In this document: one piece after another, positions 7,535 through 11,882 of the stretch
How positions within the stretch are numbered: the stretch's first letter is position 1
Layout of the letters: each line of letters opens with the position of its first letter
From: a virus
Lineage: Duplodnaviria; Heunggongvirae; Uroviricota; Caudoviricetes
Length of the DNA: 35,664 bases
Direction: 5' to 3' (one strand)
IMG/VR virus record: IMGVR_UViG_3300045988_119994
Made by a program: the position numbers and the translations under genes
The notes under the pieces: model-generated
Database searches by the model: none
What the model was told of the DNA's origin: nothing
What the model saw: only the letters and a program-made list of their open reading frames with translations

Positions 7535-8227
7535 TTAATTATGTCTCTTAAGGGTTTGCGACTGACTGATTAAGACCTTTCCAAAGACCATGAATCGGTG
7601 TTCGTTTTCGCTAGTAATTCCCCATTCACGGTAAATCTGGTTATCAGAAATCACCAGCAGTTTGTCAGGAATCATTTGAAGTCTTTTAACGTATATTTTG
7701 TCATCAAAACCAAAGACATATATACCATCACCATCAAACTGATTGATGCTGACATCAACGAAGATGAGATCTCCTGGCTCAATGGTTGGACACATACTGT
7801 CCCCACGAACGTTGATAACTTTGATGTGATTGGCTGGTCGTCCGCCGAACATTGATACAGCATTATCAGTTCTGTATTCGATGGCATGAATCACATCAAT
7901 GACATCACCGCCCTGGATAAGGCCATTTCCCGCACTGGCACTGATATCCAGCATTTCAATACGGAACACATCCTTCACCTGCGCAACATCCTCATTATTA
8001 CTGTTTTTATATACAGTATTACTTTTGTGGGCAGAGGTAAAGAGATCAGCAATATCAACACCTAAGCTCTTGGCAATATTACTCAGTGTTTGTTCGGTAA
8101 ATTGTTTTTGCTTACCCGTTTCTAAGCGCGAGATGTTCGCCGCATCTACTCCTATCGCTTCAGCGAGATCGGCGATTTTCATGTTCTTCGCTTGGCGAAG
8201 TTGTCTGACTCGGTTTCCTATGTTCAT
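7535..8227 (-). CDS. cI: CI-type repressor (N-terminal HTH, C-terminal peptidase S24 / LexA-like autocleavage domain); CohE-like
   Basis: 230-aa ORF; HTH in MKIADLAEAIGVDAANISRLETGK; C-terminal GDSMCPTIEPGDLIFVD and KRL motifs typical of S24; divergent from cro; weak SD. Confidence 0.9.
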   Translation of the reverse strand: MNIGNRVRQLRQAKNMKIADLAEAIGVDAANISRLETGKQKQFTEQTLSNIAKSLGVDIADLFTSAHKSNTVYKNSNNEDVAQVKDVFRIEMLDISASAGNGLIQGGDVIDVIHAIEYRTDNAVSMFGGRPANHIKVINVRGDSMCPTIEPGDLIFVDVSINQFDGDGIYVFGFDDKIYVKRLQMIPDKLLVISDNQIYREWGITSENEHRFMVFGKVLISQSQTLKRHN

Positions 8228-8324: not shown

Positions 8325-8585
8325 ATGCAATCACCATTACGAAATGTGCGTAAGGCGCATGGTTTCACTTTGCAGCATGTTGCTGCGGGTGTTCAAGTCA
8401 ATCCAGCGACGTTGAGTCGTATTGAGAGGCTGGAGCAGATTCCATCTATCGAGCTTGCAGAACGTTTAGCCAATTTTTTTAAGGGTGAAGTCAGCGAAAT
8501 GCAGATTCTTTATCCGGCACGTTTTCAATCTAGCCAAAACCAGAATGGGTTTAAACCACAGGAACAGGAGGTGAACCGTGGGTAA
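8325..8585 (+). CDS. cro: Cro-like HTH regulator
   Basis: 86-aa ORF divergent from cI; GGAGG SD; HTH in FTLQHVAAGVQVNPATLSRIERLE. Confidence 0.85.
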   Translation: MQSPLRNVRKAHGFTLQHVAAGVQVNPATLSRIERLEQIPSIELAERLANFFKGEVSEMQILYPARFQSSQNQNGFKPQEQEVNRG

Positions 8586-9129
8586 GCATCACTGGAAAGT
8601 AGAAAAACAGCCTGAGTGGTACGTGAAAGCTGTCAGAAAAACTATCGCAGCGTTGCCGGGGGGGTACGCTGAAGCTGCTGACTGGCTGGATGTAACAGAG
8701 AACGCATTATTTAACCGCCTTCGTGCCGATGGCGATCAGATTTTCCCGCTGGGATGGGCAATGGTTTTGCAACGTGCTGGTGGAACTCACTTCATTGCTG
8801 ACGCTGTGGCGCAGTCTGCAAATGGCGTCTTTGTGTCTCTTCCTGATGTCGAGGATGTGGACAACGCCGATATCAACCAACGCCTGCTGGAGGTCATTGA
8901 ACAGATCGGCAGTTATTCAAAACAGATTCGTTCAGCAATTGAAGACGGTGTAGTGGAACCGCATGAGAAGACAGCAATTAACGACGAGCTGTACCTCTCA
9001 ATTTCGAAGCTGCAGGAGCATGCAGCACTGGTCTACAAAATCTTTTGCGTTTCAGAAAGTAGTGACGCCCGCGAGTGTGCAGCTCCGGGCGCCGTGGCGT
9101 GTCGTGACTGTGGAGAAACTAACGCATGA
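8578..9129 (+). CDS. early regulatory protein, YmfL-like
   Basis: 183-aa ORF with GTG start overlapping cro stop, AGGAGG SD; synteny with e14 ymfL as recalled; no motif verified. Confidence 0.6.
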
Positions 9130-9464
9130 ACAGTTTAACAACACACTACCGTCGCTCGCAACTGATTGCGCTTCCTGTACCGGGTGGAAAAGCGAAGGTG
9201 GAGTATTGCTATGCAGTAAATGTACCAGGTGACAGGGAAATTGTAACCCACAGCTTTGCTGAGTGGGCTGTGGGTGATTTCAACCGGCAGAAGGAGACAG
9301 TCCTTTGCGACAAGTTAACCGCTGGTTCAAAGATCACTACGGAGTGCCCGTCAGAGTCATTCGTTGGGAGCCGGAAACACAACGAGTTATCTACCTCCGC
9401 GAAGGCTATGAGCATGAGTGCTTCAGCCCGCTCGAACAGTTTCGTCGTAAATTCAGGGAAATAG
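9126..9464 (+). CDS. ymfM: YmfM-like protein (candidate SOS-associated division inhibitor)
   Basis: 112-aa ORF, ATG overlapping upstream stop (ATGA); size and position match e14 ymfM as recalled; an alternative-frame ORF (9305-9484) overlaps its 3' half. Confidence 0.5.
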
Positions 9465-9473
9465 AGGTCGGTC

Positions 9474-10415
9474 ATGAGCACTAAATTAACCGGCTATGTA
9501 TGGGATGGTTGCGCTGCATCAGGCATGAAATTATCCAGCGTGGCAATTATGGCCCGCCTGGCTGATTTCAGTAATGACGAAGGTGTGTGTTGGCCATCAA
9601 TTGAAACCATTGCCCGTCAGATTGGCGCGGGGATGAGTACCGTCAGGACGGCTATCGCACGGCTGGAAGCAGAAGGCTGGTTAACGCGTAAGGCGCGTCG
9701 CCAGGGTAACCGCAATGCGTCGAATGTTTATCAGCTTAACGTTGCGAAGCTTCAGGCAGCGGCATTTTCTCAACTGTCAGATTCTGACCCGTCAAAATCT
9801 GACGCATCAAAATCTGACCCGTCAAAATTTGATGCGTCGAAATCTGGCAAAAAAGCGGGTTTTCACCCGTCAGAATCTGGCGGGGATCCGTCAGTAAAAT
9901 CAAAACATGATCCGTCAGATAAAAAACCTTCTCGTCCGGACGCTTCGCAACCGGACACGCAGACGGATGAACAGGATTTTTTAACTCGCCATCCTGATGC
10001 GGTTGTATTCAGCCCTAAAAAGCGCCATTGGGGAACGCAGGATGATTTGACCTGCGCACAGTGGCTCTGGAAAAAAATCATCGCCCTGTACGAGCAAGCC
10101 GCCGAATGTGACGGCGAGGTGGTTCGTCCCAAAGAACCGAACTGGACAGCCTGGGCAAACGAAATTCGCCTGATGTGTGTGCAGGATGGTCGTACTCACA
10201 AACAAATCTGCGAGATGTACAGCCGCGTCAGCCGCGATCCGTTCTGGTGCCGTAACGTGCTCAGCCCGTCGAAGTTGCGGGAAAAATGGGATGAGCTTTC
10301 CCTGCGCTTATCACCGTCCGTCAGCACGTACACCGAAAAACGCGAAGACCCGTACTTCAAATCCAGTTACGACAACGTGGACTACAGCCAGATCCCGGCA
10401 GGATTCAGGGGGTGA
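9474..10415 (+). CDS. replication initiation protein (N-terminal winged-helix DNA-binding domain) with internal origin iterons
   Basis: 313-aa ORF; N-terminal VCWPSIETIARQIGAGMSTVRTAIARLEAEGWL resembles phage replication-protein HTH; tandem 15-bp repeats inside the gene. Confidence 0.8.
   Translation: MSTKLTGYVWDGCAASGMKLSSVAIMARLADFSNDEGVCWPSIETIARQIGAGMSTVRTAIARLEAEGWLTRKARRQGNRNASNVYQLNVAKLQAAAFSQLSDSDPSKSDASKSDPSKFDASKSGKKAGFHPSESGGDPSVKSKHDPSDKKPSRPDASQPDTQTDEQDFLTRHPDAVVFSPKKRHWGTQDDLTCAQWLWKKIIALYEQAAECDGEVVRPKEPNWTAWANEIRLMCVQDGRTHKQICEMYSRVSRDPFWCRNVLSPSKLREKWDELSLRLSPSVSTYTEKREDPYFKSSYDNVDYSQIPAGFRG
9786..9924. repeat. iteron array (probable replication origin): four tandem 15-bp repeats GAYSCRTCRAAATYT (9786-9845) plus three related copies (9864-9878, 9885-9900, 9908-9924)
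   Basis: Direct repeats read in sequence; encode the repetitive SDPSK/SDASK peptide; analogous to lambda ori inside gene O. Confidence 0.7.
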
Positions 10416-10906: not shown

Positions 10907-11559
10907 TGAGTAATAAATATTGCCAGGCGCTGGTGGAACTGCGGAACAAACCAGCCCATGAACTGAAGGAAGTGGGCGATCAGTGGCGCACGCCGGACAA
11001 CATTTTCTGGGGAATTAACACCCTGTTTGGCCCGTTTGTTCTGGATCTGTTTACTGACGGTGATAACGCCAAATGTGCCGCGTATTACACGGCGGAAGAT
11101 AACGCGCTGGCGCATGACTGGTCAGAACGTCTTGCGGAGCTTAAAGGTGCTGCCTTTGGTAATCCCCCATACAGCCGCGCCAGTCAGCATGAGGGACAAT
11201 ACATCACCGGCATGCGTTACATCATGAAACATGCCAGTGCCATGCGTGATAAGGGCGGGCGCTATGTTTTCCTGATCAAAGCTGCCACCAGCGAAGTGTG
11301 GTGGCCGGAAGATGCGGACCATATTGCTTTTATTCGCGGGCGTATTGGTTTTGAACTGCCTGCCTGGTTTATCCCGAAGGATGAGAAGCAGGTGCCGACA
11401 GGCGCTTTCTTCGCTGGTGCTATTGCTGTTTTCGACAAGACCTGGAAGGGACCGGCAATCAGCTACATCGGGCGCGATGAACTTGAGGCATGTGGTGAAG
11501 CCTTTCTGGTGCAGGTTCGCCAGCAGGCGGAAAAACTGGTCAGGGAGATGGCGGCATGA
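10906..11559 (+). CDS. phage DNA N6-adenine methyltransferase (Dam-like, orphan)
   Basis: NPPY catalytic motif (FGNPPYSRA); start overlaps upstream stop (TAATG); no adjacent restriction gene. Confidence 0.8.
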   Translation: MSNKYCQALVELRNKPAHELKEVGDQWRTPDNIFWGINTLFGPFVLDLFTDGDNAKCAAYYTAEDNALAHDWSERLAELKGAAFGNPPYSRASQHEGQYITGMRYIMKHASAMRDKGGRYVFLIKAATSEVWWPEDADHIAFIRGRIGFELPAWFIPKDEKQVPTGAFFAGAIAVFDKTWKGPAISYIGRDELEACGEAFLVQVRQQAEKLVREMAA

Positions 11560-11882
11560 CGACGTTAACTCAATGCCAGCAGCAGGTGCTGGATATGCTG
11601 ATTTCTTACCAGAAAGAGCGTGGCTTTCCGCCAACCAATCAGGAGGTGGCAACCATGCTGGGATACCGTTCAGTGAATGCAGCGGTAGAGCATCTTCGTG
11701 CACTGGAGAAAAAAGGCGTCATCACGATAAAGCGTGGCGTGGCCCGGGGGATAACGCTTCATACCGCGGTGAAGGACGACGACAGCGAGGCGGTCGGGAT
11801 TATCCGCGCACTGCTTGCCAGTGAGGAAAACGCCAGGCTGCGTGCAGCCCACTGGTTACATGAGAGAGGCCTGAAAGTATGA
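11556..11882 (+). CDS. LexA DNA-binding-domain-only protein (no peptidase S24 domain)
   Basis: 108 aa; aligns with the LexA N-terminal winged helix (LT-QQ-VLD...G-PPT..E-A..LG-RS-NAA-EHL-AL-KKGVI...ARGI-L); C-terminal ~40 aa is a short helical tail. Confidence 0.8.
   Translation: MTTLTQCQQQVLDMLISYQKERGFPPTNQEVATMLGYRSVNAAVEHLRALEKKGVITIKRGVARGITLHTAVKDDDSEAVGIIRALLASEENARLRAAHWLHERGLKV

Follow-up and report, generated by a model that had tools for sequence, protein, structure and literature searches.

Two genes in one stretch: ymfM overlapped out of frame by a DUF4222 gene at the start of the replication gene of an Escherichia coli lambdoid prophage

We have analyzed a 35,664-nucleotide stretch of viral DNA (IMG/VR record IMGVR_UViG_3300045988_119994, Caudoviricetes; the whole stretch is referred to here as the window), concentrating on positions 9126-9484, which lie among the immunity and early-right genes of a lambdoid prophage of E. 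coli. Our preferred reading of this segment, to which we assign a probability of roughly 0.8, is that it holds two genuine genes of the early right operon, ymfM and a small gene of the DUF4222 family, both of them translated and sharing an out-of-frame overlap of 160 nt. Expression of ymfM would begin on an ATGA overlap with the gene upstream, ymfL, and the last ~52 residues of its product would be a read-through of the next gene in the +1 frame of that gene; the DUF4222 gene would start from its own AAGGAG inside ymfM and would end on a stop codon that overlaps the start of the replication gene. E. coli LST200A has the region with 100% identity, the same locus is found in prophage e14 of E. 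coli K-12, and about half of the complete E. coli genomes (2707 of 5426) contain some match to the region.

The signals that define this arrangement had been listed in an initial annotation, prepared from the letters of the sequence, and they are all present as described: the 112-aa open reading frame (ORF) whose ATG at 9126 overlaps the TGA of ymfL (9127-9129) and that ends in TAG, the AAGGAG placed 8 nt before a TTG, a second frame (frame 2) that is preceded by TGA at 9275-9277, is open from 9278 and is closed by TAA at 9482-9484 inside the replication gene, overlapping its start, and the peptide quoted for that frame, letter for letter. The proposed correspondence in size and position with ymfM of e14 could also be established: 109 of the 112 residues are identical to those of K-12 YmfM (b1148) and the gene occupies the same place, after ymfL and ahead of the replication gene. 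The three differences, E87G, A94V and S98N, all fall in the C-terminal part of YmfM that overlaps DUF4222 (the tail), and all are silent in DUF4222, whose product is 100% identical to the one at the same place in e14. The statement that ymfM had been reported as an SOS-inducible filamentation gene is correct as well (bioRxiv 10.1101/2020.11.19.390815).

It had been suggested that the peptide of the alternative frame looks more protein-like than the C-terminus of YmfM, and the comparison bears this out, with a Pfam family under purifying selection on one side and an unconstrained tail, predicted to be disordered, on the other. The 59-aa product matches Pfam PF13973 (DUF4222) with an E value of 8.6e-19 and 67.3 bits against a cut-off of 27, residues 2-53 aligning with positions 3-52 of the 53-position model, and the Prokaryotic Genome Annotation Pipeline (PGAP) calls it as WP_001250269.1, DUF4222 domain-containing protein, in the identical E. 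coli chromosome and in a K-12 derivative. Searching phages with tblastn recovers DUF4222 in 111 records, down to 33% identity and including some sites without a ymfM overlap; full-length YmfM is recovered in close relatives only. The gene starts with ATG, GTG or TTG in 22/22 diverged lineages (TTG in the window, ATG in most other genera), in each case downstream of a purine-rich motif resembling a Shine-Dalgarno (SD) sequence. AlphaFold2 predicts a five-strand barrel with a short helix, a small SH3/Tudor-like fold, at a predicted local distance difference test score (pLDDT) of 83, and the modeled barrel resembles the RNA-polymerase-binding domains of UvrD, Mfd and CarD.

Two further features of this gene were considered. 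The AAGGAG can pair with UCCUUU at the UUG start (window 9288-9307) in a 6-bp hairpin, which could make DUF4222 initiation dependent on translation of ymfM; a conserved hairpin over the SD and start was rejected, the minimum free energy (MFE) having a z score of -0.56 and the hairpin not being conserved in other genera. An antisense ORF of 90 aa (9209-9481, minus strand) was rejected as a gene because it is interrupted in 9/22 lineages; it is aligned with the codons of DUF4222 and probably a shadow of that gene, and the equivalent ORF is annotated as a hypothetical protein in one Klebsiella phage record (QBQ71618.1).

YmfM itself is a composite of a conserved N-terminal domain of ~57 residues and a tail overprinted on DUF4222. 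Its 112-aa product has no match in Pfam or NCBIfam. In PHROGs the segment is represented by phrog_1170 (a 112-aa profile), phrog_20047 (63 aa, covering the N-terminal half of YmfM only) and phrog_1343 (DUF4222). An exhaustive phmmer search with YmfM residues 1-58 gave 56 cluster representatives with a bimodal length distribution, 59-68 and 111-118 aa, and the N-domain is a stand-alone gene of 59-68 aa, directly after a cII-like gene, in Citrobacter phiNP, Hafnia yong2, a Providencia phage and others. In phages of this kind DUF4222 is either found downstream, behind a Rha-like gene, or is absent, as in the Providencia phage; the distance from the N-domain gene is 700-800 nt in phiNP, Hafnia yong2 and eight genome loci. 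The domain has a conserved motif, LT..RRSQL.ALPVPGG....YCYAV.VPG...V.H.F.EWAVGDF, and ratios of nonsynonymous to synonymous differences (pN/pS) of 0.24-0.42, calculated within subtypes for the part that does not overlap DUF4222, so that its protein sequence, too, is under purifying selection. The AlphaFold2 model contains three strands and two helices at moderate confidence (pLDDT ~70-80). These comparisons place the functional core of ymfM, as far as sequence can tell, in the N-terminal ~57 residues.

YmfM residues 14-50 (window 9165-9275), with the pattern LPVPGGxxxVxYCYAVxVPG, match repeats of large surface proteins (DUF7507, for example P0229, and Listeria-Bacteroides repeats). We have judged these phmmer matches, which center on the motif PxGGxxVxYxYxV, to reflect a shared beta-hairpin motif and not homology.

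Existing annotation follows one frame or the other. The curated MG1655 record, NC_000913.3, annotates ymfM only at this place, as 'cell division inhibitor YmfM', and genomes annotated with PGAP, the K-12 derivative included, carry only the DUF4222 coding sequence and leave 9130-9304 unannotated. The comparative data indicate that both annotation systems are right and that each is incomplete.

Selection at the protein level was evaluated from Nei-Gojobori proportions of synonymous (pS) and nonsynonymous (pN) differences over the overlap and its flanks, calculated for 22 representatives, with less than 90% nucleotide identity in DUF4222, of the adjacent type, that is, loci in which the N-domain gene is followed directly by DUF4222. 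A scan of one genome per species supplied 47 DUF4222 loci; a scan of viral contigs returned near-identical E. coli copies only and served for counts of intact ORFs, not for divergence. Over the overlap the DUF4222 frame has pS 0.69 and pN 0.13 (pN/pS 0.19), and the first 90 codons of the replication gene have the same pS, 0.69, with pN 0.08-0.12 (pN/pS ~0.12). Read in the YmfM frame, the overlap nucleotides give pS 0.16 and pN 0.29, corresponding to a pN/pS of 1.7. Synonymous sites of DUF4222 are thus saturated, level with those of the neighboring non-overlapped gene, so that the YmfM tail adds no constraint on protein sequence and selection on protein sequence in the overlap acts on the DUF4222 frame only. 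The tail is probably disordered, residues 70-110 having a pLDDT below 50 in the AlphaFold2 model. Comparison with e14 and related prophages had been proposed in the initial annotation as the way to find which frame is conserved; the outcome is that both frames are kept, with protein constraint in the overlap confined to DUF4222. Homologues do not show a single uninterrupted frame, apart from rare fusion variants created by indels, nor is conservation limited to the 9126-9464 frame.

How the ymfM frame is kept becomes apparent from the distribution of stop codons. In every adjacent-type locus examined (114/114, spread over about ten enterobacterial genera) the ymfM ORF is 108-117 aa in length and runs through DUF4222 in the +1 frame. 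This run-on is seen in Escherichia, Shigella, Klebsiella, Atlantibacter, Buttiauxella, Enterobacter, Citrobacter, Kosakonia, Kluyvera, Silvania, Pantoea, Phytobacter and Raoultella. The +1 frame of their DUF4222 genes contains a single stop, at offset 157-166, and the +2 frame contains 2-10; DUF4222 genes without a ymfM overlap have 1-7 stops scattered through the +1 frame. When DUF4222 is recoded synonymously with the codon usage of the flanking long ORFs, the probability that the +1 frame stays open is 0.014-0.088 per lineage, and it is observed to be open in 22/22. A more distant DUF4222 subfamily, represented by one locus from Logan assemblies and one from Buttiauxella (L139 and L048), has the full overlap too, with probabilities of 0.036 and 0.087, respectively.

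The avoidance of stops can be traced to individual third positions. Codons of the form xTN (Val, Leu, Ile) whose next codon begins with A or G have neither of these bases at their own third position (0/174), whereas in front of a codon starting with C or T, where such an ending is safe, they do so in 36 of 115 cases (Fisher 8e-17); in control DUF4222 genes without a ymfM overlap the fraction is 45/90 where the next codon starts with A. At column 16 valine is written GTA or GTG only before the arginine codons CGN, and GTC or GTT before AGA, AGG and AAA, and at column 19 ATA is used only before CGN. Parsimony on a neighbor-joining tree requires at least 13 independent third-base changes at columns that are always dangerous, and all of these are exchanges between T and C. 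Taken together these patterns show a second layer of selection on DUF4222 synonymous sites that keeps the ymfM frame free of stops. Each frame of ymfM/DUF4222 is accordingly either conserved or open beyond what chance or the other frame would give, which is what we mean by dual coding.

Composition and loss events provide two additional views of the same frame. Compared with stop-free synonymous recodings the tail has a lower hydrophobicity (mean z -1.9) and contains more Ser and Thr (mean z +1.7) in 22/22 lineages, and the +1 frames of control genes match the null; a hydrophilic, Ser/Thr-rich tail suggests that it is made as a polypeptide and kept innocuous. Nonsense codons do occur in DUF4222, at codon 7 in Phytobacter sp. 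V91 (L039 1501-1680) and at codon 46 in Kosakonia quasisacchari (L025 71-256), and in both loci the ymfM frame is open over 113-114 aa in spite of them; the converse, a nonsense codon in the ymfM frame with DUF4222 intact, was not found among the 114 adjacent loci.

The end of the ymfM frame is as regular as its openness. In 80/81 unique sequences the DUF4222 codon that forms the ymfM stop is xTA, which means one of the rare codons ATA, TTA, CTA and GTA, and the base after it is A or G, so that a stop persists whether the DUF4222 residue is I, L or V. The ymfM stop precedes the ATG of the downstream gene by 9 nt in 21/22 lineages (3 nt in the remaining one), and the DUF4222 stop lies 8 nt after that ATG. 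In these lineages ymfM and the downstream gene share a frame, with nothing but the stop and three codons between them. L139 differs in that its ymfM stop follows the ATG by 8 nt, and there all three frames are in use. The junction TAR-(A/G)GG-N5-ATGAG is conserved before at least six different downstream genes (HTH_36 replication, O-like, Rha and others), and since the N-termini that follow differ, the cassette carries its own junction. One locus in E. coli AR_0013 (L003 1276-2478) has the cassette followed by a Rha-family gene in place of the replication gene, with the same 9-nt spacing between stop and ATG. A Rha gene after the cassette here, and between the N-domain gene and DUF4222 in other phages, points to recombination exactly at these junctions.

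What the open tail is for can be proposed only tentatively. The reading that we favor, with somewhat less than even confidence, is translational coupling: ribosomes that initiate on ymfM would run to the ribosome-binding site (RBS) of the replication gene (or of the Rha gene) and terminate there, ribosomes translating DUF4222 would terminate 8 nt after the downstream ATG, just inside that gene, and expression of the downstream gene would be coupled to both upstream ORFs, with a tail that need only be harmless. The initial annotation, which described an ORF lying across a YmfM-like gene in another frame and coupled to the replication gene, holds in that the coupling geometry is conserved; the dependence itself is what we infer from it. 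The main alternative, to which we would give slightly less weight, assigns the disordered, hydrophilic tail an effect on YmfM itself, on its turnover for instance, and the stand-alone homologues of 59-68 aa that do without a tail are mildly against a core functional role of this kind.

A number of observations weigh against the two-gene reading or against coupling as the reason for the tail. The pN/pS of the tail exceeds 1, it has no sequence conservation beyond what DUF4222 imposes, and the tail peptide may be dispensable. The recoding null varies with the codon usage that is assumed, and the lineages share ancestry and are not fully independent, the parsimony minimum being ~13 events. In more distant relatives (L052 and L056) the YmfM N-domain ORF ends before or just inside DUF4222, and PGAP consistently leaves the ymfM frame uncalled. 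The hydrophilic bias derives from third positions of DUF4222 that are rich in C and poor in T, which may have another cause. Our literature search found no ribosome-profiling or proteomic report that mentions ymfM, and e14-type prophages are repressed in standard data sets. With respect to coupling, which is read from geometry, no significant RNA structure sequestering the RBS of the replication gene was found (MFE z +0.80), and a ymfM that ended at the DUF4222 start could still couple through DUF4222, so that coupling alone has no obvious need of a long tail.

Several of these points can be assembled into a rival account in which only DUF4222 matters in the overlap, YmfM is in effect a protein of ~60 residues, and the 52 residues beyond it are a neutral by-product of the position of the next stop, the open frame being due to shared ancestry or codon bias. 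The high pN/pS of the tail, a synonymous rate in DUF4222 that is not lowered, the predicted disorder, the tail-less stand-alone homologues and the uncalled frame in PGAP genomes are all in keeping with it. Nevertheless we consider it unlikely. With pS at 0.69, synonymous sites are saturated, yet +1 stops occur in 0/22 lineages where the chance of being open is 1-9% each; the avoidance depends on context, co-varying with the next codon, and is absent from DUF4222 genes without a ymfM overlap; and the rare, stop-forming xTA is conserved whatever the residue, while the composition of the tail departs from the null in 22/22 lineages.

The initial annotation had left a frameshift, a pseudogene and a true overlapping gene side by side, of which the last stands and the first two do not. 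An ancestral gene in which the YmfM N-domain and DUF4222 were fused, broken by an indel near 9270-9310 and now decaying, or a sequencing error with the same effect, would account for frame 2 being open for 27 nt upstream of the TTG and for the in-frame fusion proteins that do exist (P0030, P0052, P0059, P0065 with 14 members, and P0090; 102-152 aa). It is extremely unlikely, given that the two-frame layout is identical in all 114 adjacent-type loci and about half of the complete E. coli genomes carry the region, that other phages have the N-domain and DUF4222 as separate genes, and that DUF4222 has its own SD and start, mostly ATG, in every lineage; the fusion variants are rare and their junctions differ, so that secondary indels or errors of assembly are their likeliest origin. 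Programmed -1 frameshifting from ymfM into DUF4222 between 9278 and 9305, adding a fusion protein to the two separate products, is also very improbable. DUF4222 is indeed in the -1 frame of ymfM, open from 9278, and the natural fusions show that such a protein is tolerated, but 9278-9310 contains no X XXY YYZ slippery heptamer in the ymfM frame, the junction sequence is poorly conserved among lineages, the downstream structure is not significant (z -0.56), and an independent SD and start provide a simpler account of how DUF4222 is expressed. Finally, the curated K-12 record lists b1148 alone and filamentation has been attributed to YmfM, which would fit a single real gene with the DUF4222 frame as a chance ORF. 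The Pfam match, the spread of the family through phage records to sites that have no ymfM overlap, the low pN/pS, the confident predicted fold and the existence of a characterized family member, RgdR, leave this possibility with practically no weight.

The features of the segment and of the genes on either side are collected in Table 1. Genes for a PerC-like protein and an N6-adenine methyltransferase also belong to the neighborhood, listed after the replication initiator.

Table 1. Coordinates of the overlapping genes, their signals and the flanking genes (window positions)
Feature	Positions	Strand	Basis or comment
CI-like repressor	7535-8227	minus	
Cro-like helix-turn-helix (HTH) protein	8325-8585		
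ymfL, cII-like regulator gene, 183 aa	8578-9129	+	Pfam Phage_CP76, E 1.3e-13; NCBIfam phage_reg_YmfL, 169.9 bits vs cut-off 90; PGAP name 'protein YmfL'
ymfM, 112 aa	9126-9464	+	97% identity to K-12 b1148; phrog_1170 over residues 1-112, E 3.8e-70
YmfM N-terminal domain, ~residues 1-57, outside the DUF4222 overlap	9126-9299	+	
SD AAGGAG of the DUF4222 gene, within ymfM codons K56-E57	9291-9296	+	8 nt before TTG 9305
DUF4222 gene, 59 aa, TTG start	9305-9484	+	Pfam PF13973; PGAP coding sequence WP_001250269.1
Dual-coding segment, 160 nt	9305-9464	+	YmfM residues 60-112 = +1 frame of DUF4222
ymfM stop TAG	9462-9464	+	DUF4222 codon ATA (I53) plus G of the following codon
SD GAGG and ATG 9474 of the replication gene	9466-9476	+	between the ymfM and DUF4222 stops
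Replication initiator, HTH_36, O-like, frame shared with ymfM	9474-10415	+	Pfam HTH_36, E 4.3e-11; phrog_391 'replication initiation O-like', E 2.2e-135

Within the replication gene, window 9762-9884 contains six direct repeats with a 15-nt period (TCAAAATCTGACCCG-like) that encode a SDPSKSDASKSDPSK linker and look like origin iterons within the initiator gene, as in lambda O. Further downstream, on the plus strand, an ORF of 108 aa (window 11556-11882) resembles the N-terminal, DNA-binding part of LexA but has no protease domain; PF01726 is present in a fusion variant of it, P0002, and the product could be a prophage-encoded modulator of the LexA operator.

The overlap bears directly on the filamentation phenotype known as SfiC. 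Ansari et al. expressed the ymfM 'open reading frame' from pBAD24 and obtained complete filamentation with loss of Z rings, independently of SulA, SlmA and MinC, and deletion of ymfM lowered SOS filamentation in a sulA-deletion background; their original library clone spanned ymfL(142-185)-ymfM-ymfN(1-92), and ymfM was treated as a gene with a single product, with no frame-specific mutants reported (bioRxiv 10.1101/2020.11.19.390815). An insert that ends at the ymfM stop would still hold the DUF4222 SD, its TTG and codons 1-53, the whole Pfam domain, and a ymfM deletion removes both genes. Because the clone, the library clone and the deletion all affect both ORFs, the polypeptide that blocks Z rings is not assignable from these experiments, and filamentation could be due to the YmfM N-domain, to DUF4222 or to the two together. 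One could go further and propose that SfiC of e14 is the embedded DUF4222 protein, or requires it, and that the long YmfM tail is selected only as a 'ribosome conveyor' that ends ymfM translation on the RBS of the replication gene; we offer this as a speculative combination, with the odds clearly against it.

These results matter for a locus that is carried by K-12 and by about half of complete E. coli genomes and on which the two main annotation systems conflict. The identification of ymfM as sfiC (2020-21) rests on constructs containing both genes, so that a named K-12 gene and a 40-year-old phenotype are touched. The segment also provides a clean natural example of an overprinted frame selected only for openness, a fixed end and hydrophilicity, a signature that is invisible to gene finders and to tests of the dN/dS type. 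Overprinting in phages is a known kind of arrangement and both ORFs are already in databases; the connection between them is new as far as our literature search extends, which returned no paper that connects ymfM with DUF4222, with an overlap or with start sites from ribosome profiling.

Comparison with characterized proteins is instructive for each of the two products. The phenotype that Ansari et al. report for the ymfM construct, a block of Z rings, recalls Kil (lambda, Rac), DicB (Qin) and SulA, small proteins made from early or SOS-derepressed prophage operons. The one characterized DUF4222 protein is RgdR (ECs1581) of prophage CP-933C in enterohemorrhagic E. coli, a 99-aa product of a P4-like element (PMC3378721, PMC10877973), whose RGD motif at residues 20-22 is needed for activation of the type III secretion system (PMC3378721). 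Compared by description only, RgdR and the window protein have in common the reported Pfam domain, small size and a prophage origin, RgdR having pleiotropic regulatory effects on expression; the window protein, at 59 aa, is 40 residues shorter, contains no RGD and lies directly before a replication gene.

At the level of translation the closest parallels are junctions at which overlapping or closely spaced stop and start codons couple two genes by termination and reinitiation, such as the ATGA overlaps of phage and trp operons. The ATGA shared by ymfL and ymfM is of this form, and so are the stops of ymfM and DUF4222, 9 nt before and 8 nt after the replication-gene ATG. The difference is that here two upstream ORFs in different frames end at one start, one of them apparently kept open over 52 codons of the other, and we know of no described case with both properties. 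The downstream gene differs between the two E. coli copies as well, being intact in the window and truncated and fused in e14, where it forms the ymfN chimera.

In Rz/Rz1 of lambda and in overprinting of the phiX174/MS2 type, one strand of phage DNA specifies two proteins in different frames. The pair described here resembles them in combining an older, constrained frame with a younger, biased one that is predicted to be disordered, each with translation signals of its own. It departs from Rz/Rz1 in that ymfM is overprinted in its C-terminal half only, with the N-domain outside the overlap, whereas Rz1 is a sequence-constrained lipoprotein wholly embedded in Rz. It departs from known overprinting more generally in that the ymfM tail shows no protein-sequence constraint at all, only stop avoidance, a fixed end and a hydrophilic bias, and in that the ymfM/DUF4222 arrangement travels as a cassette placed before varied replication genes.

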